The notes below the pieces were generated by a model. It did not search any database. It was not told where the DNA came from and worked only from the letters and a program-made list of their open reading frames with translations. Of a DNA stretch of 15,144 bases, positions 3,987 through 15,144 are shown one piece after another (position 1 is the stretch's first letter; every line of letters begins with the position of its first letter). The position numbers were made by a program, and so were the translations under genes. The DNA is from Promethearchaeota archaeon (GTDB lineage Archaea; Asgardarchaeota; Lokiarchaeia; Sigyniarchaeales; SOKP01), in contig JBHLLT010000041.1 of the NCBI GenBank assembly GCA_048938855.1, forward strand, positions 1 through 15,144, given 5' to 3'.

Positions 3987-4006
3987 TATTATCCATAAGA
4001 TTCTTC

Positions 4007-4077
4007 AAATGAATTTTCATTGAAATTAGATGTTGAATTTACCTTTCCATGAAAAATAAGAAAAAGAAGGGAAAAGA
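4007..4077. repeat. Dispersed intergenic element, A half plus A-rich spacer
   Basis: aattttcattgaaattagatgttgaatttacctttccatgaaaaataagaaaaagaag matches 1089-1146; the spacer aaaaataagaaaaa is also at 12971-12984. Confidence 0.78.
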
Positions 4078-4106
4078 GAAAACTAATAGGTAAATAATTT
4101 CTTTTT

Positions 4107-4267: not shown

Positions 4268-5209
4268 TCAAAATATATCAAAAATTTCCTTCCAATCTTC
4301 TTTTTGAGCATAAAATATAGCTTCTCTAAGGTTTTCGAGATACTTTTCGATTTCATTGTCAGAATAATCTTCCAATATTGAATACTGGCTATAAACTCTG
4401 TCAGGTAATATCTTCTTTTTGTCCAAGATGTAAATAGCTTGATTAAAAAATGTTTTCACAGCTTTATCCCAAGCATAAACTTGGATTTTATCGAATATAC
4501 TTTCAACCAAGCGTTCAATTATATACCCTTTTATTGGTTTTCCCCATGTAAAATTCCAGTATTTAATAAGGAGTATAAGTTTAGTTATTTTTCCATTTTG
4601 CTTCTTATTTAATTTAGAGAGTGTTTGTTCTTCTAATTTTGGATTTACCTTTTTAATTCCTCCTACACCATTAGGCTTAACAAGGTACCCGTTGGGTAAT
4701 TCAATAGCGGGAATACAGTCAAATAGTATTGAATTCCCTGGATAATCCATTCTAATTGGGATAGCATGTCCGTATGGGGGATCTTTTAATAATTTCATAT
4801 CTGTTCCATGATAATAATTGAAAGACTTAAGATTTGAATATATTAATTCAAAAAGTAAATCGCCTGTTATCATATCTTGCTCATTAGAATAATTTCTCCA
4901 AATATTCACAGTTTGAACAGTAGTATTTTGAGGACTATCTCTGCAGTAGATAAAGTACAAATCAATATCAAATCGATTCTTAATGAAAATACCTCTATCG
5001 AAAGAGCCTCCATACCAGAATCGTTCCAAAGTGTATATATCTGATGATATAAAGATATTTGACCAAGAAGGCATTTGATATTGAGATATATTCTTTAATG
5101 CATCATAGAATTCATTAGTTTTTCTTCGAAGGAAGGTCTTTTGATTCTCTTTAATAGTTAAAGAATTAATTAATCGTTCCAACCTATTATGAATTTTTTT
5201 TCCTGCCAA
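4268..5209 (-). CDS. SMODS / cGAS-DncV-like (Pol-beta superfamily) nucleotidyltransferase
   Basis: GGSFDRG..DIDL (hG[GS]-xn-DxD), third Asp in FDCIPA, C-lobe VNPK..LILLIKYWN..IKGYIIERL typical of CD-NTase/OAS-like enzymes. TTG start; TTAAATATA about 25-30 nt upstream. Confidence 0.8.
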   Translation of the reverse strand: MAGKKIHNRLERLINSLTIKENQKTFLRRKTNEFYDALKNISQYQMPSWSNIFISSDIYTLERFWYGGSFDRGIFIKNRFDIDLYFIYCRDSPQNTTVQTVNIWRNYSNEQDMITGDLLFELIYSNLKSFNYYHGTDMKLLKDPPYGHAIPIRMDYPGNSILFDCIPAIELPNGYLVKPNGVGGIKKVNPKLEEQTLSKLNKKQNGKITKLILLIKYWNFTWGKPIKGYIIERLVESIFDKIQVYAWDKAVKTFFNQAIYILDKKKILPDRVYSQYSILEDYSDNEIEKYLENLREAIFYAQKEDWKEIFDIF

Positions 5210-5258: not shown

Positions 5259-5351
5259 TTAGAAAATAATGAATGCAAAAAATTCGAGCTCATCAAATTC
5301 TTCCGTCGCTCCATTGTACTCAAAAATACGGATATTTTCATTGTCATTCAT
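5259..5351 (-). pseudogene. 5' fragment of a gelsolin-like gene
   Basis: MNDNENIRIFEYNGATEEFDELE-FFAFIIF*. The first 23 aa are identical to residues 128-150 of the 9926..10951 protein, after which homology stops. Confidence 0.8.
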
Positions 5352-5363
5352 TGATTTTGCCTT
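5281..5363. repeat. 83-bp direct repeat, copy 1
   Basis: 81/83 nt identical to 10500-10582. Confidence 0.97.
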
Positions 5364-5376
5364 CTTAATAGGGTAA

Positions 5377-5901
5377 TTATTCCCATTTTCTTTTCAAATC
5401 TTCTATTGTCATCGTTCTTACTTTATCTAGAGCCCATATAACAAATTTATAACAAGTTTTTTCCCATGTTCCACTTTCTCGATAATTCATATATCCATTA
5501 GGATCACTAAAGTCAAAACCACAGAGTTCTGAACATACTACTGACCCAAATTCCTTTTCAAATTCAGATGCAAATTCCCTTGCTTTTAAATATGCTGTAA
5601 ACATCGTCTCTTCATCCATTTTCTCTTGACCTCCCAAAATTGCTCCAATAGCTGCACAACCACCTACAACTGCACCACAAGCTCCCATCCACCCTTTCTT
5701 AGATTTATATCCTCCAAAACCTCCTGCTAAAGGTTTTGCTATGTTATGAAATATGTAATTATCTATCTCAAGCACATCTAATACATTTGTTAAGGTTAAT
5801 TCAGCACAATTAACATCTTTTTTTAGATATGGTAATTCTTTCTCTAATTCTTGAATCTTGTTATTAAACTTAGAATTTATATTAATCCCCATCTGATTCA
5901 C
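5377..5901 (-). CDS. C_GCAxxG_C_C family putative redox-active protein
   Basis: NCAE..GGFGG..GACGAVVGG..FGSVVCSEL..TCYKFV; all four family cysteines present. Confidence 0.88.
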   Translation of the reverse strand: MNQMGININSKFNNKIQELEKELPYLKKDVNCAELTLTNVLDVLEIDNYIFHNIAKPLAGGFGGYKSKKGWMGACGAVVGGCAAIGAILGGQEKMDEETMFTAYLKAREFASEFEKEFGSVVCSELCGFDFSDPNGYMNYRESGTWEKTCYKFVIWALDKVRTMTIEDLKRKWE

Positions 5902-5914
5902 TTTTTTGACTTTT

Positions 5915-6430
5915 TTACTTTTTTGGACTAAATTGATTATCTAAAATAATTTGAACTGCCATTTTTGCAACATTTCCCACAACTTCTGAAGAATAATTCA
6001 TCATTCCTGAGCTAGAAGCTTCTTCAAATTCTTTTTCATTCCAAAGATTATAAGTTCTGCCCATTAATTTCTGTTGAACATCAAAACATCGGCATGAACC
6101 ATATATGCTGACATACTTATCATGAAGCTCTTTAACAAGTTTATAAGACTTCAATGGTTTATACATATCCTTAAAATCCTTATGTTCCCTGCCAAAAAGA
6201 TAACTTATAACCATAGATGCCCCTACTAAAGCCCCACATGATCCGTCTCCGGTTAAACCTAAACCATCGGCTAAACCACTTGCTGCCTTAAATACAGCTT
6301 CATTCCAAATTCCTAACGCTTCAAATATTGCCGCAATAGCACTCTGAGAACACCCAGTACATTGCTTCTCATATTTTTTCCCCAGCTCATATGCCTTATC
6401 TAATATTTCTTTTTCTGACATTTTAGTCAA
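5915..6430 (-). CDS. C_GCAxxG_C_C family putative redox-active protein
   Basis: GCSQS..ASGLADGLG..GSCGALVGA..YGSCRC; 13 nt from the downstream paralog. Confidence 0.88.
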   Translation of the reverse strand: MTKMSEKEILDKAYELGKKYEKQCTGCSQSAIAAIFEALGIWNEAVFKAASGLADGLGLTGDGSCGALVGASMVISYLFGREHKDFKDMYKPLKSYKLVKELHDKYVSIYGSCRCFDVQQKLMGRTYNLWNEKEFEEASSSGMMNYSSEVVGNVAKMAVQIILDNQFSPKK

Positions 6431-6748: not shown

Positions 6749-6937
6749 TAAGTTCTCTCCATTTTTCACCACTACTCCTAACTGTGATATGTCAAATTCT
6801 TACCTTACTTTAATTCTAAGAAGATAGAAAATTATGACAAATAAGTAATTTTTATATATCTTATGTGTCTTGTAGATATTGGTAGAATCAAATTTCTAAA
6901 AAACAAGATTTCTTAACTAGAGATTTTCAAAATTTGA

Positions 6938-7732
6938 ATGAGATTAAAGAATAGAAATTATAGAGATTCAAGATGTCTTTGTGTTAAAGAACAGGTTATA
7001 GTGCTAATAATACTTCTTATAATTATAGCAGTATTGGCAAAAATTGAGATAATTATTATATTAGGAATATCATTATTAACAGTAGAGCTAGTAGTGGTTT
7101 ATTATGGAGTTAAAAATAAAACAAAAGAGAATAAATGGGAAAGAGTACCAGAAATCACAGAAGAACCACTTTCTTTAACAGAAACCATAGAAAAACCACC
7201 TTCTTTAACAGAAACCATAGAAAACCAAAAACCAAATTGGCTTTTTAAAATACTCTTATTAGGTGATCCTTCTTCAGGAAAGGAGGATTTAAATGGAAAC
7301 CATTTTGATTTCGATACTAAATTAACTATAGGTGTTGATTTCTTTACAAAGGATATTGTTCTTAATAAAAAAATAATAAGACTCAATCTTTGGGATATGG
7401 ATATTGAGGAGGATAAAAGATTCAGATGTCTAATACCAAGCTACTTTGAAGGGGCCAGTGGGGCAATTATTTTGTATGATATTACAAACTCAAATAGCTT
7501 AAAGCATGTTCCAGAGTGGATTCAAATAATTAGAGAACACGTGGGTGATATTCCAATCTTTTTTATTGGAAATAATATTGATCTTGCCGAATCTCGTAAT
7601 GTCTCAAGAGAGGAAGGAATTAACCTTGTAACAAAATATAATTTAAATGCATTTAGCGAGATATCAACTAAGACTGGTGAGAATGTAGAAGAGATATTTA
7701 ACACTCTTAGTGATATTATAATAAAAAGATAG
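6938..7732 (+). CDS. Membrane-anchored Rab-like small GTPase with degenerate G motifs
   Basis: Hydrophobic N-terminal stretch (VIVLIILLIIIAVLA..IIIILGISLLTVELVVVYYGV). FKILLLGDPSSGKE, TIGVDF, LNLWD, YFEGASGAIILYDIT, GNNIDL, EISTKTGENV. Confidence 0.85.
   Translation: MRLKNRNYRDSRCLCVKEQVIVLIILLIIIAVLAKIEIIIILGISLLTVELVVVYYGVKNKTKENKWERVPEITEEPLSLTETIEKPPSLTETIENQKPNWLFKILLLGDPSSGKEDLNGNHFDFDTKLTIGVDFFTKDIVLNKKIIRLNLWDMDIEEDKRFRCLIPSYFEGASGAIILYDITNSNSLKHVPEWIQIIREHVGDIPIFFIGNNIDLAESRNVSREEGINLVTKYNLNAFSEISTKTGENVEEIFNTLSDIIIKR
7164..7223 (+). repeat. In-frame 30-bp tandem duplication (PLSLTETIEK / PPSLTETIEN)
   Basis: aaccac(t/c)ttctttaacagaaaccatagaaa x2, 29/30 identical. Confidence 0.95.
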
Positions 7733-7811
7733 GAGTGACATTAACTCGGAAGCCCGAAAGCTCTCTACGTACACCCCCACCTTATTAAGCCCGTCTTATA
7801 CGAATGTTTCT

Positions 7812-8408
7812 CTAATCAACCTTATTTCCACATATATGACAAATAGTTTGACCCTTTGGAAGATTAGCACCACAGTGTTTACAATAAGACTCATATTTTA
7901 CATCTTCTTCAATAATTGGTCGCTTGCCTTGTGGTTTACCCTGTATTCCTAGATCTCCAGGCGGACTCGGAAGCTTGAAGATATATGGAAATGGCAGATA
8001 TCCATTATCATCATTATCATCAAAATCTCCTCTAAAAATTTTAGCAATTCTCTCACTCATTCGCTTACAATCTAGGAAAATTAGTCCTAATCTAGCATTT
8101 ATACTTGTAGAAATTGTTAATGCTGCCTCTGGACCGGCAGGAAATGTAAGAAGATACCCATCTGAGCCTTTTACATATAATTGGTCGAATTCGCCAATTT
8201 CCATCTCTTTTATTGAATTTTTAGCTAAGGAGAGCAAAGAAGCAGTCATCGCAGCCACCCTTGTTTCATCTAATCCTTGACGTAAAGCTGAAGCAATTGG
8301 TAAACCATCTATAGTACTAATTAAAGAACCATTGACACCAGGAATCGATCCTAAAAATTTTCTTTTTCTTCTTTTCCTTTTTGCATCATCATCGGCATAA
8401 GGGCCCAT
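7812..8408 (-). CDS. Roadblock/LC7 (MglB-like) protein with basic N-terminus and C-terminal PFPYIFK-proline + zinc-ribbon tail
   Basis: ISTIDGLPIASAL..DETRVAAMTASLLSLA..GEFDQLYVKGSDGYLL..AGPEAAL..LGLIFLD; tail CKHC..CHIC. Confidence 0.9.
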   Translation of the reverse strand: MGPYADDDAKRKRRKRKFLGSIPGVNGSLISTIDGLPIASALRQGLDETRVAAMTASLLSLAKNSIKEMEIGEFDQLYVKGSDGYLLTFPAGPEAALTISTSINARLGLIFLDCKRMSERIAKIFRGDFDDNDDNGYLPFPYIFKLPSPPGDLGIQGKPQGKRPIIEEDVKYESYCKHCGANLPKGQTICHICGNKVD

Positions 8409-8742
8409 AAAATCTACGCTTCTTTTTATTTAGTTTTTCTAAATAATCTTTTGTACAGAATTGTATGTATTGAATATCATTTAAACTTGTTCCTTCCACT
8501 CTTAACTTCAAATGTCTTTTTTTCTTTGATAATTAATTTATATTCAGTACCTAAGATTGGTTAAATAAAATATTGATTGAATTCATTTAATAGGTTTAAA
8601 GCAAAATAATAGTAGTTTTCTAAGCTTTCTAGCAAAAGAATAATGTGAGGAAATTTTAAATACAATTAAATATGTACGGTTTTGTATAATTCTCTAGAGA
8701 AATAAGATATTATTATTAGTTAAGAAGAATTTGTGTTTGAAG

Positions 8743-9273
8743 ATGGTTTATGATGCTTCATATAAAATTATCGTTTTTGGTGAGCCTGGAGTAAAGACTC
8801 AACTAATTCAAAGATTTTTAACTAATTTGTATAAATCAGGTTCAAAAATGACTCCTGGAGTTGATTTTGAAGTTAAAACTCTTATGGTTGATAAATATAG
8901 GGTAAAACTACAAATTTGGGATTTTGGTGGGGAAGAAAGATTTCGATTTTTATTACCAACTTATGTGCGAGGGGCAAATGGGGCTCTATTTGTATACGAT
9001 GTCACAAGTTATAGTTCCTTAGCACACATAGATGATTGGTTAATGGTAATTAGAAGAGAACTTAGACTAGAAGACACACTTCCCATTATAATGGTAGGAG
9101 TAGTATCAGATTTAGACGCAGAACGGCAAATCTCGACAGAAGAAGCAATTAAAATTGCAAAATCTAAAAGTACAGACGGTTTTGCAGAATGTAATCCGAG
9201 AACAGGTGAAAATGTAAAAGAAACCTTCGAAACGTTAACAAGGCTAATGCTTGCTAATTCAGGATTGTTATAA
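8743..9273 (+). CDS. Rab-like small GTPase with degenerate G1/G4/G5
   Basis: YKIIVFGEPGVKT, TPGVDFEVK, KLQIWDFGGEERFRFLLPTYVRGANGALFVYDVT. ATG at 8743 preferred over TTG at 8731. Confidence 0.88.
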   Translation: MVYDASYKIIVFGEPGVKTQLIQRFLTNLYKSGSKMTPGVDFEVKTLMVDKYRVKLQIWDFGGEERFRFLLPTYVRGANGALFVYDVTSYSSLAHIDDWLMVIRRELRLEDTLPIIMVGVVSDLDAERQISTEEAIKIAKSKSTDGFAECNPRTGENVKETFETLTRLMLANSGLL

Positions 9274-9301
9274 CTAAATTATAAACAACTTGGAGTAAAT
9301 T

Positions 9302-9877
9302 ATGTATTGTGGAAATTGTGGTATAGAGCTACCCGATCCTAATCAACAATTTTGTCCGAACTGTGGAATTCCATTAAAATACCAGAATATGATAGATTCT
9401 TTAAAAAAGAATTTCGAAATTATTGCTGGAGCTGTAATTAAAGATTCGCGAATTGTTTATACAACAGATAATTGGGATATTAGTAGAGATATTGACAATC
9501 TATTATCAAATTGGAGAGACAAAGATGCTAAATTCATAATGGTTTCGGGAGTAAAATATTCTATTTTACAAATGGTGCCAGAACGTTTAGTTGCTATCTC
9601 TTTAAAAGGCGAAGGAAGTATCGTGGGTGCAAAAAATGATGATTATATAATTATTCTTCAAGTAAATCACGAGAAAAGTAAAAATGGGAATTATCCGTTT
9701 CCTTACATATTCAAGCCCCCCAGTCCAGCTGGAGATCTAGAATTAGCAGCGCAACCACAGGCCAAAGAATCTATTACCGAACAAGATATTGAGTATGAGA
9801 CCTATTGTAAGCATTGTGGCGCTGAACTCCCAAAAGGACAAACTATTTGTCATGTATGCGGAAATAAAGTCGAATAA
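9302..9877 (+). CDS. Asgard profilin-like domain flanked by an N-terminal zinc ribbon and a C-terminal PFPYIFK-proline + zinc-ribbon tail
   Basis: IVYTTDNWDISRDID and SGVKYSILQMVPERLVAISLKGEGSIV match the Lokiarchaeal profilin pattern (TxNWxIxxD; GxKY..ER..GxG). CGNC..CPNC head, CKHC..CHVC tail. GGAG upstream; 28 nt after the GTPase stop. Confidence 0.8.
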   Translation: MYCGNCGIELPDPNQQFCPNCGIPLKYQNMIDSLKKNFEIIAGAVIKDSRIVYTTDNWDISRDIDNLLSNWRDKDAKFIMVSGVKYSILQMVPERLVAISLKGEGSIVGAKNDDYIIILQVNHEKSKNGNYPFPYIFKPPSPAGDLELAAQPQAKESITEQDIEYETYCKHCGAELPKGQTICHVCGNKVE

Positions 9878-9885
9878 TTTTTTTT
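9878..9885 (+). terminator. Oligo-T archaeal terminator candidate
   Basis: T8 immediately after the profilin stop, between convergent genes. Confidence 0.5.
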
Positions 9886-9925
9886 AAACCTAGAACTACC
9901 TTAAAGGATAAGAAAGAAAAGTGTT

Positions 9926-10951
9926 CTATATACTATCTTGTTTTTTCAGAAGTTCAATTAACTTGATTTTATTAAATGAGAAGATTAACCGAGGAATATA
10001 ATCCTCCAGCAGATAAGAACCATCCTCTACCTCTTCCTTTAACGTGAATAACTTCTCAGAGCCTACATGAGACCCAATTTCCTCAATCTCTTTGTAATAA
10101 TATATTTCATTATTTACTATAATTATTTTTCTCTCATATCCTTCTGGAATATCTATTTTTTTCAAAAGTAAAAGAATTTGCTCATGGGATATGAGCTCAT
10201 CCTCCACCTCCAACCCCTTATACTCTGGCTCTATCTGCTCTGGAGCATAATCTTGTTCTTGTTCTAATCCTATGAACACCCTAAAACCTAATGGCTCAAA
10301 TCCCTCGTTGATTCCAGATACTTTAAACGCAAAAGCATGCTGATCTCGTATACGCTCGGCATTCTTAATCGCAGAAACTCTCATATAAATTGTGGTATCA
10401 ATCCCATACCACACCCACACCCTCTTCCGCTGCGGATCAATAAAAAGCAGAATATATTCCGATCCTAATAATTCATACAACGGAGCCTCATTATCTTCCA
10501 ATTCGAGCTCATCAAATTCTTCCGTTGCTCCATTGTACTCAAAAATACGGATATTTTCATTGTCATTCATTGATTTTACCTTAGTATCCTGATTATTTGG
10601 CTTTTTTTTTAACATGATTTTGAATTCTAAGGGTTCACTACCCTCCTCAATAGGTACTATTTTAAATCCCTTCCCATATTTATTCCGTGCCCATTTATCA
10701 GCAATATATCTCATTCTTGTAGTCGTATTGCTCCCACACCATATCCAAACTCTGTAAAGAAAAGAATCAGCTATAAGTATAATAAAATCTGAATCGAGAA
10801 TTTCATAAAGAGGCATTTTAATTTTAAAGGGTCGAAATTCATGTTCTCGAACAGAATATTTGAAACCTTTTATTTTAAGCGGAATTCCACAATTTGGGCA
10901 ATATCGCTGACTTGGATCCTGTAATTCAGCTCCACAATTTTCACAATACAT
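9926..10951 (-). CDS. Zinc-ribbon + two gelsolin-like domains + unknown C-terminal domain
   Basis: Two internal repeats, PLYEILDSDFIILI..RVWIWCG..TTTRMR..IEEGSEPLEF and PLYELLGSEYILLF..RVWVWYG..TTIYMR..INEGFEPLGF, match the gelsolin LxSxx..hhhWxG..EGxEPxxF pattern. Confidence 0.82.
   Translation of the reverse strand: MYCENCGAELQDPSQRYCPNCGIPLKIKGFKYSVREHEFRPFKIKMPLYEILDSDFIILIADSFLYRVWIWCGSNTTTRMRYIADKWARNKYGKGFKIVPIEEGSEPLEFKIMLKKKPNNQDTKVKSMNDNENIRIFEYNGATEEFDELELEDNEAPLYELLGSEYILLFIDPQRKRVWVWYGIDTTIYMRVSAIKNAERIRDQHAFAFKVSGINEGFEPLGFRVFIGLEQEQDYAPEQIEPEYKGLEVEDELISHEQILLLLKKIDIPEGYERKIIIVNNEIYYYKEIEEIGSHVGSEKLFTLKEEVEDGSYLLEDYIPRLIFSFNKIKLIELLKKQDSI
10500..10582. repeat. 83-bp direct repeat, copy 2 (inside the gelsolin-like gene)
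   Basis: 81/83 nt identical to 5281-5363; spans the internal Met128 codon at 10570. Confidence 0.97.
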
Positions 10952-10981
10952 GCTCTTTCTAATTACCTATTCAAAGAAATT

Positions 10982-11000
10982 TTTATGAATTTCTCATAAA
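10982..11000. promoter_or_regulatory. 7-5-7 inverted repeat just upstream of the gelsolin-like gene, candidate operator
   Basis: TTTATGA-atttc-TCATAAA, between a TATA-like box (11018-11025) and the start at 10951. AT-rich, so chance is possible. Confidence 0.3.
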
Positions 11001-11005
11001 GTTAA

Positions 11006-11067
11006 AAGAAAAAGGAATATAAAAATAATACTCAAGAGCATACTCCACCTTCTCAAACCTCTCCAAA
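11006..11067. repeat. Dispersed intergenic element, B half
   Basis: 11006-11046 is 39/41 nt identical to 12267-12307; tctcaaacctctccaaa (11051-11067) is identical to 12322-12338. Confidence 0.9.
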
Positions 11068-11097
11068 TACCTCAACTCACATTATGTATTTTCAAGC

Positions 11098-11910
11098 TCA
11101 AATATCAGAATTTAATAATTTCTCAACTTTTTTCCATAAGATCAACATTTCAGGAAGTTCTTTAGTATTCATAATGTGCTTTTTATATTCAGCAAGACTA
11201 AGTACATATTCTTCCTGTTTATCAAGATAATCTTCAAAAGAATCTGTTTCTCCGATGTGATATTTTCTCCACAATTTTTGCTGCTTTTTTAACTTTCTTT
11301 TACCTCTAAATTTCTCTTTTTGAGTCTTGATCTTTCTGTCAATTATCCAAATGAAATGTTCACGTTTCTCTTCTAACATCTCTTTAAAATCAATGTTTAG
11401 TATCAAACACGCTATGTTGAAAAGCATTTTTTCAACATTTTGTCCTGTTTTTAGTGAAATCTCCATCCATGAGGATATATCGTTAATTTCTTTAAATTTT
11501 TCTGCGTGCTCTTTTGATACTTCTCGATTCTCCTCCAAATCTAATTTATTTCCCACTAATAAGATTCGAATATCACCCCTATACTCTTTTACTATTCTAC
11601 ACCACTCAGATAATCTGTTTAAGGTTGTTGTATTAGTTATATCATACATTAATATTACCCCCCCAGATCCTCTAATAAAGCTATCCCACAGTTTTTCAAA
11701 TTCTTTATCTTCAGAAATTATCCAAAATTGTAGCCTTATAATTTTTTCATGAAATTCTACCTCTTTAATAGCGAAATTAACTCCTGTTGGTGAGTTTTTA
11801 TAATACTCAAAAGAGCTATTCAAAAAATTACTTTTTGCTAAGGTTTCTTTCCCTACATCTTTATCAGCAAACAAGCATATTTTAAACAACAGGTATGAAT
11901 CATGATTCAT
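11098..11910 (-). CDS. Rab-like small GTPase with degenerate G1/G3 and a charged helical C-terminal extension
   Basis: FKICLFADKDVGKE, PTGVNF, RLQFWIISED, FIRGSGGVILMYDIT, LVGNKLDL, EISLKTGQNV; ~95-aa Lys/Glu-rich tail. Confidence 0.86.
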   Translation of the reverse strand: MNHDSYLLFKICLFADKDVGKETLAKSNFLNSSFEYYKNSPTGVNFAIKEVEFHEKIIRLQFWIISEDKEFEKLWDSFIRGSGGVILMYDITNTTTLNRLSEWCRIVKEYRGDIRILLVGNKLDLEENREVSKEHAEKFKEINDISSWMEISLKTGQNVEKMLFNIACLILNIDFKEMLEEKREHFIWIIDRKIKTQKEKFRGKRKLKKQQKLWRKYHIGETDSFEDYLDKQEEYVLSLAEYKKHIMNTKELPEMLILWKKVEKLLNSDI

Positions 11911-12035
11911 ATTCTTGTCTTATAGAAAATCTTTTTTTGATAATAATAAAAATATTACTATATAATTTTTCTTTTCAGAAGGTCAATAATTCCGACTACA
12001 CCTCGTTAGGCCTTGTCTTTTTAAACATATTCTAT

Positions 12036-12227
12036 TCACTCCTTCTCTGGTTCCGTCCACTTCTTTTTCCATGCCTTTAGATATTCCTTGAAAGCACTCG
12101 TTGATATTCCAATTTTACTTTCATCTTTATCAGTTGAGTCCTTCTCCTTCATTTGCATTTCCCAATTATAATAACTTTCCGGAAATCCCTTCTTTGATTT
12201 TCCCGTCCTCCCCTTATTGTTTTTCAT
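12036..12227 (-). CDS. Small charged hypothetical protein (63 aa)
   Basis: GGAGG 4 nt before the ATG at 12227 (preferred over TTG 12242); fills the gap between co-oriented genes; no recognised motif. Confidence 0.55.
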   Translation of the reverse strand: MKNNKGRTGKSKKGFPESYYNWEMQMKEKDSTDKDESKIGISTSAFKEYLKAWKKKWTEPEKE

Positions 12228-12266
12228 GCTTTCCTCCAACAATTTAGAGTAATGATACTACTAATT

Positions 12267-12358
12267 AAGAAAAAGAAATATAAAAATAATACTCAAGAAC
12301 ATACTCCTTCTTATCTCTTCATCTCAAACCTCTCCAAACACACTTCACTTACCCTCAC
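12267..12358. repeat. Dispersed intergenic element, B half
   Basis: Matches 11006-11067 and 1160-1230. Confidence 0.9.
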
Positions 12359-12372
12359 GCTCTAAGCCTGAT

Positions 12373-12936
12373 TTATGAATTTTTTATAAATCTTACCACA
12401 GTTCCCCAATACTCCGTTTTAATCCCACGCAACAATAAATTTTCTGCTACAGAATTTTTTAACATCGGAAATCCATCACTAGAAATCTTTAAATAGCGTT
12501 CACTTAAAATCTCGGGAAGGTATTGCCTCTCAATTGTAATTTCAGAAACAGACTCTTGTTCCATGAGGGCTATAATTTTCCTGTAAGCACCTCCTTCTGA
12601 TCTTAGATCCGAAAAAATGAGTCCAAGGCTTACATCGTTAGTTGTCGAAATTGCTAATAGAGCATTAGGTCCTGCTGGACGCACTAATAAGTATCCATCT
12701 GAACCTTTAATGTAAAGTTGGTTCAATTCCCCCTTATTCATCTCAATAATCGATTGCCTAGATAAAGAATGTAAGGATGCCATTAGTGCAGATACACGGG
12801 TCTCATCAAATCCTTGAGGAAGGGCCGATGCTATAGGTAAGCCCTCCATACTCACAATTGCTGCTGCTGTCGCCTCTGGAATAGTTGCTAACAGCCTTTT
12901 TAAAATATCATCTAGATTTTCTGAAACTGGATCCAT
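12373..12936 (-). CDS. Roadblock/LC7 (MglB-like) protein with ~75-aa C-terminal extension
   Basis: LDDILKRL..AAAIVSMEGLPIASALP..DETRVSALMASL..GELNQLYIKGSDGYLL..AGPNALL..LGLIF. Confidence 0.9.
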   Translation of the reverse strand: MDPVSENLDDILKRLLATIPEATAAAIVSMEGLPIASALPQGFDETRVSALMASLHSLSRQSIIEMNKGELNQLYIKGSDGYLLVRPAGPNALLAISTTNDVSLGLIFSDLRSEGGAYRKIIALMEQESVSEITIERQYLPEILSERYLKISSDGFPMLKNSVAENLLLRGIKTEYWGTVVRFIKNS

Positions 12937-12970
12937 GGATTAGCAATATGAATATGTTCTAATTATTATA

Positions 12971-13013
12971 AAAATAAGAAAAAAGAATTAAAAAACTTGC
13001 TCTAGAACATACT
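12971..13013. repeat. Dispersed intergenic element, degenerate spacer + B half
   Basis: aagaaaaaagaattaaaaaacttgctctagaacatact versus aagaaaaagaaatataaaaataatactcaagaacatact (12267-12305); tctcttcatct also recurs just downstream. Confidence 0.55.
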
Positions 13014-13154
13014 ATAATGAAAATTATTTTACCTTTCTTATCAACTCTCTTCATCTTCTCAGCCTTCAATCCTCTACATTGTTTTCTATTGTAAGATACT
13101 TACCTATTTAACTCTATTGTAAGTTCTTCTCAACAATTATTATGCTTGGGATCA

Positions 13155-13853
13155 TTAAAATCTGTTCTTCCTACGTATTACAAAAACTAATATTCCAATT
13201 GCTACTGCACCAATACCCACGCTCACTCCTATAATTATAGGTAAATCGCTGACTCTATAATGAAAGATCAATTTAGGAGGCACATCCCAAAAAGGTTCAT
13301 CATCCCAACATTGTCTTGAAGAGAAACACACGCTATTTAAATCATCGGTAGTGATGCGTATAGACCAATATCCTAATACTCCTTCAAGACCCCCAGTAAC
13401 ATCGATTATTAAGTCTGTTTCGTCAGAAATTAACACTGAAGTTAATGGAGAAGCTTGGCGTAGGGGAGCATTGTTCCAAGTAACAGTCATTTCAACCCAA
13501 TTAGAAAAACATCCATAGATATCTGCCGTCACAAGTGCTTGAACATAATTCATGTCCAGCCGTAATACTACTTTATAAAAATTCGAAGGCGGGTCCGATA
13601 TATCAAATTTAATAATTGTATCGAGCAGTGCTGGACTATAATTTTTATTAATTCCTCTATAAAAATAACTGTAATATCCTATTCTGAGAGATGGATCATC
13701 ACCATAATTTAAATCAGGTTCATTGAAATCGATGAATGAATCTGCAATTGGTGTATAGGTTTTTCTTTCCTCTAAAGCCATTACAGGCATGATAAATGAG
13801 CAAAGCAACATACCACATAGCAAAAATAAGTATAAATATATTGTTTTTTTCAA
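13155..13853 (-). CDS. Secreted, C-terminally membrane-anchored DNRLRE/CBM96-like domain protein
   Basis: Signal peptide; PIADSFI..PDLNYG..L.IG, IKFDIS, WVEMTVTWNNAP, IDVT, FSSR..PKL; C-terminal TM helix followed by RRKNRF. Confidence 0.78.
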   Translation of the reverse strand: MKKTIYLYLFLLCGMLLCSFIMPVMALEERKTYTPIADSFIDFNEPDLNYGDDPSLRIGYYSYFYRGINKNYSPALLDTIIKFDISDPPSNFYKVVLRLDMNYVQALVTADIYGCFSNWVEMTVTWNNAPLRQASPLTSVLISDETDLIIDVTGGLEGVLGYWSIRITTDDLNSVCFSSRQCWDDEPFWDVPPKLIFHYRVSDLPIIIGVSVGIGAVAIGILVFVIRRKNRF

Positions 13854-14104: not shown

Positions 14105-15144
14105 ATGGTTACGATAAAAACCCTCACTGAAGAAGACAAAAAGAGACGAGAAAAGAAAGAAAAAAGAAGACTATTTTTCAGAAAATTCTCCAATCGAATC
14201 GTTAAGACAGCCATGATTTTAAATATTATTGTTATTGCCTTTATCGTGAGCGCCCCATTATTTAATTTTGCTTCCACTTCAATCAACTTTTACAAAGAAG
14301 AAGAAAATCAATTTAGAGTGGGATATCCTATTGTGTTTGGATGGAAGATCTCAGGTTCTCCCTCACAAGCGTATATCTTATGGGGGGATGGAAGTTCTGA
14401 GGATATTACTATGAATCGCTCTGGCACTGTGAAGCATAAGTATGCGTTACAAGGAAGATATTCCCCTACGCTACTTTACTGGAGTATATTTGGCAATTTA
14501 AGATCAAAATCTCTTGCAGTAAAAATCGAAAATGATATATTAAATTATGAAATTACATCTAAGGATCGTGTATTTGAAGGAGAAGAGGTTGTTATCTCTA
14601 TTGATTCGGTATATAGATTAAATAAGGAACTTAGTAAAACTGAGGAAGAGCTCACTTTTATATATGACGTGTCAGAGTCGCAGATAACATCAAATCAAAG
14701 TTCTATAGTGTATAGTTGGAATAATGCGGGAATATTTCCCATAAAAGTTACTATTATGGATTCTCAAGGAGTATTAAGCAAACAAAGCAAAAGTATTACA
14801 GTTCAAAATAAAGCCCCAGAAGCTAAATTTTTGATTTTAAGCAATACTAGTAATCGTGCTCTTTCTCCAATTAAATTCAGTGCTGGAACAAGTACAGACA
14901 CAGTAAATGATAAGATTTCTCTACAATATTTATGGAACTGGGGAGACAACACGGTTTCATGGGGGAAATATGTCTCCCATACATATAGTTCCCCAGGAAG
15001 TTATAATATTTCCTTATGTGCTATGGATGATGATGCGGTTAGTGATCTATATTCTCAATTCATTACCATAGAAGAAGAACTCTCATCAGATATACCCATC
15101 TATAATTCTACCTCTAAAGAACCTTATATTGCGATTGGAACCTT
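14105..15144 (+). CDS. PKD-repeat surface protein, partial (runs off the window; absent from the ORF track)
   Basis: Open from ATG 14105 (MVTIKTLTEEDKKRREKK..) to the window end. N-terminal TM segment; ILWGDGS..KHKYALQGRY, YSWNNAGIFPIKVTIMDSQG, NKAPEA..YLWNWGDN..SHTYSSPGSYNISL..DDD give about three PKD domains. Confidence 0.9.
   Translation, partial: MVTIKTLTEEDKKRREKKEKRRLFFRKFSNRIVKTAMILNIIVIAFIVSAPLFNFASTSINFYKEEENQFRVGYPIVFGWKISGSPSQAYILWGDGSSEDITMNRSGTVKHKYALQGRYSPTLLYWSIFGNLRSKSLAVKIENDILNYEITSKDRVFEGEEVVISIDSVYRLNKELSKTEEELTFIYDVSESQITSNQSSIVYSWNNAGIFPIKVTIMDSQGVLSKQSKSITVQNKAPEAKFLILSNTSNRALSPIKFSAGTSTDTVNDKISLQYLWNWGDNTVSWGKYVSHTYSSPGSYNISLCAMDDDAVSDLYSQFITIEEELSSDIPIYNSTSKEPYIAIGT

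Follow-up and report, generated by a model that had tools for sequence, protein, structure and literature searches.

The stretch of DNA analysed here, hereafter the window, comprises the first 15,144 nucleotides (nt) of contig C72 (19,587 nt in total) of a metagenome-assembled genome from a lokiarchaeial (Promethearchaeia) organism (3.95 Mb, 97% complete, ~31% GC). We confirmed eight open reading frames (ORFs) between positions 6938 and 12936: three genes for Ras/Rab-like GTPases (G1, G2 and G3), two for roadblock proteins (RB1 and RB2), one for a profilin (PFN), one for a gelsolin (GEL) and one small ORF (sORF). That seven of the eight are of eukaryotic-signature types, as the initial annotation had stated, was borne out by matches to Pfam and to the Protein Data Bank (PDB) and by our own hidden Markov models (HMMs). 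With seven genes in 6 kb, this is the densest cluster of Ras, roadblock (Robl), profilin (Pfn) and gelsolin (Gel) genes in the genome, the runner-up 6-kb span holding four. From base counts of ~126 Ras/Robl genes and 15 Pfn/Gel genes, the Poisson probability of at least seven such genes in 6 kb is 3e-9 (2e-6 genome-wide). In total, the genome holds ~96 Ras matches, 17 Pfam roadblock matches (17-30 roadblock domains overall), 5 profilins and ~11 gelsolin-domain genes (own HMMs), and outside this locus every profilin or gelsolin gene lies more than 3.2 kb from any Ras or roadblock gene. The identical gene order in an independent assembly (GCA_048885565.1, 99.47% identity) and in a Logan contig shows that the locus is not misassembled, and it is intact, with every frame open, in two assemblies of the species.

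The three GTPase-like proteins have altered nucleotide-binding motifs. G1 (6938-7732, plus strand; Pfam Ras PF00071, 5e-33) is a Rab/Ras-like protein of 264 amino acids (aa) predicted to be membrane-anchored, with an N-terminal hydrophobic segment at residues 10-59 (Kyte-Doolittle 19-residue maximum 3.19) and a Ras domain at residues 104-261; such a strong N-terminal anchor was found in G1 alone. The linker from the anchor to the G domain contains two 10-aa repeats, PEITEEPLSL and TETIEKPPSL, which correspond to a tandem 30-nt repeat at 7146-7205. Its P-loop reads GDPSSGKE, its switch II WDMDIEE, and NNID replaces NKxD. G2 (8743-9273, plus strand; 176 aa; Pfam Ras PF00071, 7e-38) is Rab-like and likely starts at the ATG at 8743, within an ORF open from 8731. 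Its best solved relatives are Rabs (Ypt6 at 4e-34, Rab35 and a Thorarchaeota Rab), and comparison with Ypt6 makes visible a one-residue deletion in its P-loop (GEPGV-KT). In G2, VSDLD replaces NKxD and switch II, WDFGGEERFRFL (WDFGGEE), is intact. The protein sits in a genus-wide clade with the same degenerate motifs and a perfectly kept switch II, and is 67-71% identical to genes on contigs C91 and C1. G3 (11098-11910, minus strand; 270 aa; Pfam Ras PF00071, 8e-30) is Rab/Ras-like, with the P-loop ADKDVGKE, a switch II region WIISEDK without DxxG, and NKLD kept; its Lys-rich C-terminal extension of 100 aa had no relatives except in the species' own assemblies. Upstream of G3 lies the sORF (12036-12242, minus strand; 63-68 aa, Lys-rich, ATG at 12227), which is called as a gene in the public assembly and whose only paralogues, weak ones (39-43% over 44-46 aa), lie elsewhere in the genome.

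The canonical P-loop GxxxxGK[S/T] is thus missing from all three locus GTPases. Among 91 Ras domains aligned from the genome, it is canonical in 79 and substituted in six, three of which belong to this locus. DxxG is found only in G2 and NKxD only in G3, and the C-termini (...IIKR, ...NSGLL and ...NSDI) all lack the Cys prenylation motif of eukaryotic Rabs. Judged by these motifs, the Rab-like proteins of the locus are probably scaffolds rather than GTP switches. The GTPase signalling that the initial annotation had proposed is not supported, nor is canonical GTP switching, by the sequences of G1-G3, none of which has a canonical P-loop and two of which also lack DxxG.

Both roadblock genes encode extended proteins. 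RB1 (7812-8408, minus strand) has a roadblock/LC7 domain at residues 18-117 (Pfam Robl_LC7 PF03259, 9e-15) and a C-terminal module that we call the Tail, which reads YLPFPYIFKLPSPPGDL...CKHCGANLPKGQTICHICGNKV and is 66% identical to the Tail of the profilin; RB1 itself is 66% identical to a 131-aa roadblock on contig C34. RB2 (12373-12936, minus strand) has a roadblock domain at residues 10-100 (Pfam Robl_LC7 PF03259, 6e-17), a long helix and a C-terminal domain of 60-70 aa (RB2C). In the AlphaFold2 (AF2) model of RB2 (pLDDT 79 overall, 85-96 in RB2C), RB2C has an alpha/beta fold that weakly resembles winged-helix domains (Z 4.5-6.3), and the roadblock matches the MK-D1 roadblocks 9jue and 7yh1 and MglB (6hjm) with Z of 6.8, 6.1 and 6.0, respectively. 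We found RB2C also on a gelsolin (C32), on profilins (L022 and L072), on a receiver protein (L031) and on Tail proteins. With hhalign, RB2C showed no relationship to the GelX, Robl, Gel or Pfn profiles (probability at most 1%), and the Pfn and Robl profiles matched each other at 7% only. Robl-Robl-Tail fusions occur in relatives.

Roadblock genes stand in other settings as well. On contig C34 (G000:C34:349466-353768), the 131-aa housekeeping roadblock lies ~3.5 kb from a near-canonical Rab-like GTPase with intact P-loop and DxxG and with SKLD instead of NKxD; this arrangement is syntenic in most congeners, so that a roadblock-GTPase neighbourhood distinct from the locus in the window is conserved in the genus. 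In L031 (G062:C37), positions 6762-11221 hold co-oriented genes for a TPR-Ras protein (895 aa), a Robl-Tail protein, a receiver-RB2C protein with a zinc ribbon (ZnR) and a Robl protein. TPR proteins also flank a gelsolin in G014:C273 and a Pfn-Tail gene in L076.

The profilin gene PFN (9302-9877, plus strand) encodes a zinc ribbon (residues 1-25), a profilin core (~27-122) and a Tail (124-191). Pfam matched only its zinc ribbons, and the profilin assignment comes from phmmer matches of residues 27-115 to solved profilins (7pbh at 4e-8, 5zza at 3e-7, 5yed/5yee at 1e-6, with a range to 8e-6). In the AF2 model, of moderate confidence (pLDDT 70), an N-terminal helix is followed by the beta-sheet in an order consistent with profilin, and after the last strand there is only a short helix (124-128) and then disorder, where a profilin would have the C-terminal helix that shapes the poly-proline groove together with the N-terminal one; a disordered Pro-rich linker joins the core to the C-terminal zinc ribbon. 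The core is 61% identical to a housekeeping profilin of 219 aa on contig C31. The initial annotation had placed a GTPase gene 28 nt upstream of the profilin, and the spacer from the G2 stop to the PFN ATG is indeed exactly 28 nt, with a GGAG 8 nt ahead of the ATG.

GEL (9926-10951, minus strand) encodes a zinc ribbon, two gelsolin repeats (47-113 and 157-227) and a domain X (240-339). It matches adseverin (5a1k, 2e-6, both repeats), 7c2f and the Asgard 2DGel structures 7whf/7whg; our own gelsolin HMM hit its repeats at 2e-26 and 1e-27, and Pfam PF00626 stayed below threshold. The N-terminal zinc ribbon is 60% identical to that of PFN. Residues 124-339 are 50% identical to a conserved 1DGelX paralogue on contig C47, and domain X is common to the 1DGelX orthologues of the genus (by 1DGelX we mean the genus's gelsolins with one repeat plus extension, named by architecture). 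Full-length GEL orthologues were found in L078 (GCA_033723575.1; 93%) and in SCS4bin.30 (57%, with an in-frame TAA). The untagged housekeeping paralogues, not the window's copies, have orthologues throughout the genus. Going by these comparisons, the main genes of the locus are all tagged, lineage-specific paralogues of housekeeping genes that the genome carries at other sites. A complex prediction for GEL residues 1-236 with RB1, run with our own alignments and without controls, scored 0.17 and 0.08 against a mark of 0.32 and counts neither way.

The genes RB2, sORF, G3 and GEL share the minus strand, as the initial annotation had noted. Their co-orientation was confirmed. They do not form a tight operon, because the gaps between them measure 130, 125 and 146 nt. 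From their spacing and the repeated promoter-like elements ahead of them (see below), they look like separate transcription units rather than a single operon.

The accessory modules of the locus, that is the N-terminal zinc ribbon, the 68-aa C-terminal Tail and the winged-helix-like RB2C, are shared across proteins of different families. In PFN and RB1, the Tail consists of PFPYIFKPPSPPGDL, a linker and CKHCGAxLPKGQTICHxCGNKV, and the family consensus is PFPYIFKPPxPPGDL, a linker and a CxxC...CxxC zinc ribbon. We searched the Tail profile against 1.84 billion cluster representatives and found 169 proteins with a Tail at E <=1e-10, the Tail being almost always C-terminal. Its partners are few in kind. 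Among 129 representatives with a full Tail, our own HMMs recognised Robl in 24, Gel in 22, Ras in 13 and Pfn in 3, and Pfam recognised Robl in 21, Ras in 12, REC in 5, Gelsolin in 4, LAMTOR5 in 3 and Profilin in 1; some Tail proteins match Pfam LAMTOR5 or MAPKK1_Int. Beyond these, no frequent Pfam family other than zinc ribbons was seen among the 129. Across differing host domains, the mean column identity of the Tail is 73%. This exceeds the conservation of the hosts themselves, which argues for a common, constrained partner. When five closed genomes of the order were searched with the Tail profile as the only query and without a positive control, nothing matched at E <=1e-8.

Pairs of these gene types recur in other genomes. 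First, gelsolins lie beside roadblock or Ras genes: in L079 and L080 (~63% identity), a ZnR-Gel gene is followed by Robl-Tail with Ras genes flanking; in G014, a 1DGelX paralogue (a gelsolin paralogue at 66%) adjoins a Robl-ZnR-Robl-Tail fusion; in G008, ZnR-Gel is divergent from Ras; and in G061, Gel-Tail adjoins Ras. Second, profilins have similar neighbours. In L071 (GCA_012974705.1), where the wider context differs, a spacer of again 28 nt separates a G2-like gene from the ZnR-Pfn-Tail gene downstream, and spacer and flanks are 97% identical to those of the window; L076 has Pfn-Tail followed by Robl, and L075 a ZnR-Pfn gene convergent with Gel. Third, the domains are fused. ZnR-Gel-Robl-Tail proteins were found in L081 and as P0018 (Pfam Robl plus own gelsolin HMM at 2e-31), and Ras-Robl-Tail proteins as P0247 and P0272. 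Ras-Gel-Tail proteins are P0240, which Pfam Ras matches at 4e-39 and whose cluster has four members, drawn from JGI and ENA, and P0179, which is matched by both Pfam Ras and Pfam Gelsolin. P0240 has a canonical P-loop (GDSAVGKT), NKLD and SAK. As a control, we checked loci for a Ras, Robl or Tail gene at a distance of up to 1.5 kb and found one at 0 of 25 1DGelX loci and 0 of 30 housekeeping-profilin loci, against 6 of 7 tagged gelsolin contexts and 5 of 8 tagged profilin contexts. The contigs used for comparison are in many cases short pieces of metagenomes, and Ns or in-frame stops occur in some of them.

A separate observation concerns such stops. The ZnR-gelsolin genes of L079 (2056-2520) and L080 (1132-1596) each have a single in-frame TGA at an expected conserved Trp codon, and so does the Ras-gelsolin-Tail gene of L144 (7971-9542), which is unrelated to the ZnR-gelsolins. 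These genes may be pseudogenes, or TGA may be read through or recoded.

On balance, we lean towards the view that the locus belongs, as a lineage-specific part, to an Asgard network defined by the Tail, in which roadblock/Rab-like scaffolds are connected with actin regulators. Of the link between GTPases or roadblocks and actin drawn in the initial annotation, the recurrent adjacencies, the fusions and the empty untagged controls (0/30 and 0/25) sustain the connection itself, but not its pre-eukaryotic age nor its description as GTPase signalling. As to neighbourhood conservation, which the initial annotation had proposed to check, the whole order is confined to the species, and sub-blocks and fusions recur. 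From these patterns we infer physical assembly, membrane localisation, an effect on actin and a role of the Rab-like proteins as scaffolds or non-canonical switches. In such a mechanism, RB1 and RB2 would pair in the manner of roadblock domains, and together with the nucleotide-site-degenerate Rab-like proteins they would form a platform akin to Ragulator or MglB, with G1 as the membrane anchor. In one relative (G011:C10), a G1-like domain (47% identity) and a G2 orthologue form one protein of 548 aa, and because of this fusion G1 and G2 probably pair. Through the zinc-ribbon, Tail and RB2C tags that they share, the paralogues of profilin and gelsolin would be directed to a common partner or site. 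As an outcome, actin-monomer supply and filament severing or capping would be localised.

Such a platform can be compared with known systems. MglA/MglB and Rag/Ragulator are the precedents for roadblock-GTPase pairing (PMC10933270). As in MglA/MglB and in archaeal and Asgard roadblock-GTPase pairs, small GTPases stand beside or fused to roadblock/LC7 domains, and RB2 superposes on MglB; but the GTPases of the locus are by best match Rab-like and not MglA-like, their motifs are degenerate, the roadblocks are extended by Tail or RB2C, actin regulators belong to the cluster and there is no tight GTPase-roadblock operon. With Ragulator-Rag/EGO, the locus shares several roadblocks (two here), a GTPase pair (the G1-like plus G2 fusion of the relative) and a membrane anchor. 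In contrast, its GTPases lack the C-terminal roadblock domain of Rags, its anchor is the transmembrane segment of a GTPase and not a lipidated LAMTOR1, and actin regulators are attached in place of a TOR link. A conserved Asgard operon combines a LAMTOR1-like roadblock, a Rab-like GTPase and DENN (Liu et al., bioRxiv 10.1101/2020.10.19.343400). Our locus likewise has a roadblock-superfamily protein and a Rab-like GTPase in an Asgard neighbourhood, but it has no DENN match in Pfam, is species-specific and holds a profilin and a gelsolin. Among Asgard actin regulators, three gelsolin architectures were described, ProGel, 1DGelX and 2DGel (Akil et al. 2020, PMC7444086). GEL has gelsolin repeats and shares X with the forms of its genus, and the PFN core aligns with 5yee, 5zza and 7pbh; however, ZnR-Gel-Gel-X and ZnR-profilin-Tail are not among the architectures in PMC7444086, PFN seems in its AF2 model to be without a full C-terminal helix, and both proteins are accessory paralogues, not the conserved copies. 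Our literature searches found no paper describing the gelsolin-roadblock or the other fusions, a zinc-ribbon profilin, Asgard pseudoGTPases or the Tail, which does not disprove that one exists.

Several points weigh against a functional network at this locus. Zinc ribbons are promiscuous in archaea. The complete gene order was found in assemblies of the same species only. L078, at 94.5% nucleotide identity, is without G2-PFN, sORF-G3 and RB2; having lost them, it indicates that these parts are individually dispensable. No Ras or Robl gene lies within 10 kb of the GEL orthologue of SCS4bin.30, several ZnR-profilin relatives stand in unrelated contexts (L072 and L073), and orthologues have in-frame stops (TAA in L043, TGA in L079 and L144). 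In 68 of the 129 Tail representatives, many of them fragments, no partner domain was recognised. We built the HMMs for gelsolin, profilin, Tail and RB2C ourselves, those for gelsolin and profilin from this genome and its loci, and most of the calls made with the latter two are without support from Pfam. Finally, the compared genomes are kin and not independent, so that Fisher values for tagged versus untagged contexts are overstated.

These points bear on a distinctly less probable but serious explanation, namely that the locus is a hotspot of recombination and paralogue accumulation without functional coupling. Duplicated fragments of abundant families would then shuffle in a variable island by recombination between copies of a dispersed ~150-nt repeat, and the shared tags would record recent common descent of DNA. 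In line with this, all genes of the locus are lineage-specific paralogues with a conserved counterpart at another site of the genome, and homologues carry in-frame stops. The distribution of the locus fits as well: a search of 40 genomes of congeneric species and 154 genomes of the same order did not find the whole arrangement, and the ZnR-gelsolin type occurs in 2 of the 154.

Turnover is seen in the comparison with L078. There, the GEL orthologue is followed directly by the RB1 orthologue (91%), and ~200 nt replace G2-PFN; in this remnant, a trace of the PFN zinc ribbon survives along with 32 codons of a GTPase N-terminus whose P-loop is short in the same way. A GNAT-like gene stands at the expected place of RB2. 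Two copies of an intergenic repeat directly border the segment sORF-G3 that is missing. In the window, these promoter-like copies lie on the minus strand at 10993-11072, 42 nt upstream of GEL and containing TTTTTATATT, and at 12256-12344, ~30 nt upstream of the sORF, and so bracket the segment missing in L078. A diverged third copy (12966-13068, minus strand; nhmmer E 5e-12) lies 30 nt upstream of RB2. The repeat has a TATA-like TTTTTATATT and ends 30-44 nt before the starts of GEL, the sORF and RB2, and likewise ahead of a single Ras gene on a different contig. We rejected it as a regulon motif of the whole genome, there being one further strong copy (upstream of a Ras gene at C81:162676) and otherwise weak ones. 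It is part of the dispersed ~150-nt intergenic element, whose copies, all in minus orientation, lie at 60-150, 1075-1228, 1809-1861, 3990-4100, 10952-11097, 12243-12372 and 12963-13088. The 5' part of the element (...GGAGTATGTTCTTGAGTATTATTTTTATATTTCTTTTTCTT) precedes GEL, the sORF and RB2, the 3' part (ATGGAAAGGTAAATTCAGCGTCTGATTTCAATGAAAAT) is found at the remaining sites, and a full copy stands ahead of an amidase gene in L078 (2538-2700).

A second trace of rearrangement is an 83-nt fragment of the gelsolin linker at 5281-5363 (minus strand), a direct repeat 98% identical to 10500-10582 at a distance of 5.2 kb. It sits between a CD-NTase-like gene and a C_GCAxxG_C_C gene and is a relic of a recent rearrangement. 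The CD-NTase-like gene (4268-5209, minus strand; 313 aa, no Pfam match), a neighbour also in keeping with a hotspot, was matched by PADLOC models of CBASS oligonucleotide cyclases (best 2e-16), and we recognised no obvious effector gene beside it. Because of the losses in L078, the dispersed repeat copies and the gelsolin fragment, we consider the locus recent and in flux. It is young, unstable and lineage-specific, and the pre-eukaryotic origin suggested in the initial annotation is not supported.

The hotspot explanation accounts less well for the recurrence of the same combinations at 40-65% protein identity (L079, L081, L021, L076, P0240 and P0247). Moreover, it would not predict a Tail more conserved than its hosts with a narrow partner repertoire, untagged paralogues without such neighbours, or frames that stay open in two assemblies of the species.

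It is improbable that the locus encodes a canonical GTP/GDP switch, in which Rab-like GTPases are cycled by roadblock GAP/GEFs, with profilin and gelsolin as effectors, as an ancestral forerunner of Rho-type control. GTPases and roadblocks do lie close together, MglA/MglB and Rag/Ragulator are precedents, and Ras-Robl-Tail fusions and the canonical motifs of P0240 would suit such a switch. But the P-loops of the locus end in GKE in G1, lack one residue in G2 and read ADKDVGKE in G3, the DxxG glycine is missing in G1 and G3, and NKxD is missing in G1 and G2. There is also no roadblock-GTPase operon: RB1 is divergent from G2, and RB2 and G3 are split by the sORF and gaps of 125-130 nt. According to published analyses, MK-D1 GTPases are generally not in operons with roadblocks (Tran et al., PMC10933270), the layout of a genome does not allow GTPases to be assigned to their regulators (bioRxiv 10.1101/2020.10.19.343400; PMC10933270) and conserved neighbourhoods are missing for most Asgard eukaryotic signature proteins (Liu et al., bioRxiv 10.1101/2020.10.19.343400). 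As the locus is not conserved across Lokiarchaeia, there is no support for an ancestral status.

Least probable is a conflict-related variable island whose tagged paralogues and pseudo-GTPases would act as parts, targets or decoys in conflict with viruses or mobile elements and not in housekeeping control of the cytoskeleton: patchy distribution, quick turnover, the CBASS-type cyclase homologue 1.7 kb off, defence-like genes (AAA_15/AAA_21+SLFN_AlbA_2 and DUF4238) in L144 (GCA_004196295.1, 1394-4603) ~3.4 kb from the Ras-Gel-Tail gene and a group II intron reverse transcriptase adjoining ZnR-Pfn in L075 would fit it, but PADLOC matches none of the eight products, the window holds no phage or integrase genes and the neighbourhood evidence is anecdotal.

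The window also holds other genes. Directly upstream of the cluster are two tandem paralogues of C_GCAxxG_C_C putative redox proteins (5377-6430, minus strand). On the other side, a CBM96-domain protein (13155-13853) precedes the start of a very large PKD-domain protein at 14105-15142 and beyond (L069:13131-18903+), whose length in the public assembly is 2556 aa. Scans for Rfam families and tRNAs found none in the window.

How the Tail would act can be tentatively proposed. Eukaryotic Rho-family GTPases control actin via effectors such as formins and WASP/VASP, which recruit profilin-actin by proline-rich motifs. The Tail could be a docking module, its short Pro-rich motif serving to recruit profilin(-actin) or some other cytoskeletal partner common to these proteins and its zinc ribbon serving as the anchor of the protein; Tail-bearing roadblock/Rab-like platforms would be archaeal hubs of actin assembly and remodelling, and Ras-gelsolin-Tail proteins nucleotide-gated severing factors. 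We regard this proposal as rather unlikely in this specific form. As in Rho-actin control, a GTPase, a Pro-rich motif, profilin and gelsolin come together, and Ras-gelsolin fusions are a direct link from a GTPase to an actin regulator. However, we saw no Rho, formin FH2, WH2 or Arp2/3 components, the GTPases of the locus are probably not switches, and PPxPP is a short Pro-rich motif that would bind profilin only hypothetically. If the proposal were true, Asgard archaea would have evolved a GTPase-to-actin link of their own, either separately from the eukaryotic Rho-formin/WASP logic or earlier than it.

The locus also calls for caution against an ancestral reading of such clusters, this one being recent, unstable and built with nucleotide-site-degenerate GTPase paralogues. 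Work on the profilins, gelsolins, roadblocks and small GTPases of Asgard archaea has so far dealt with each of them singly. The locus and the Tail family, together with the Ras-gelsolin and gelsolin-roadblock fusions, provide concrete, cloneable candidate partners, with which the archaeal wiring of actin regulation to GTPase/roadblock platforms becomes testable in vitro.

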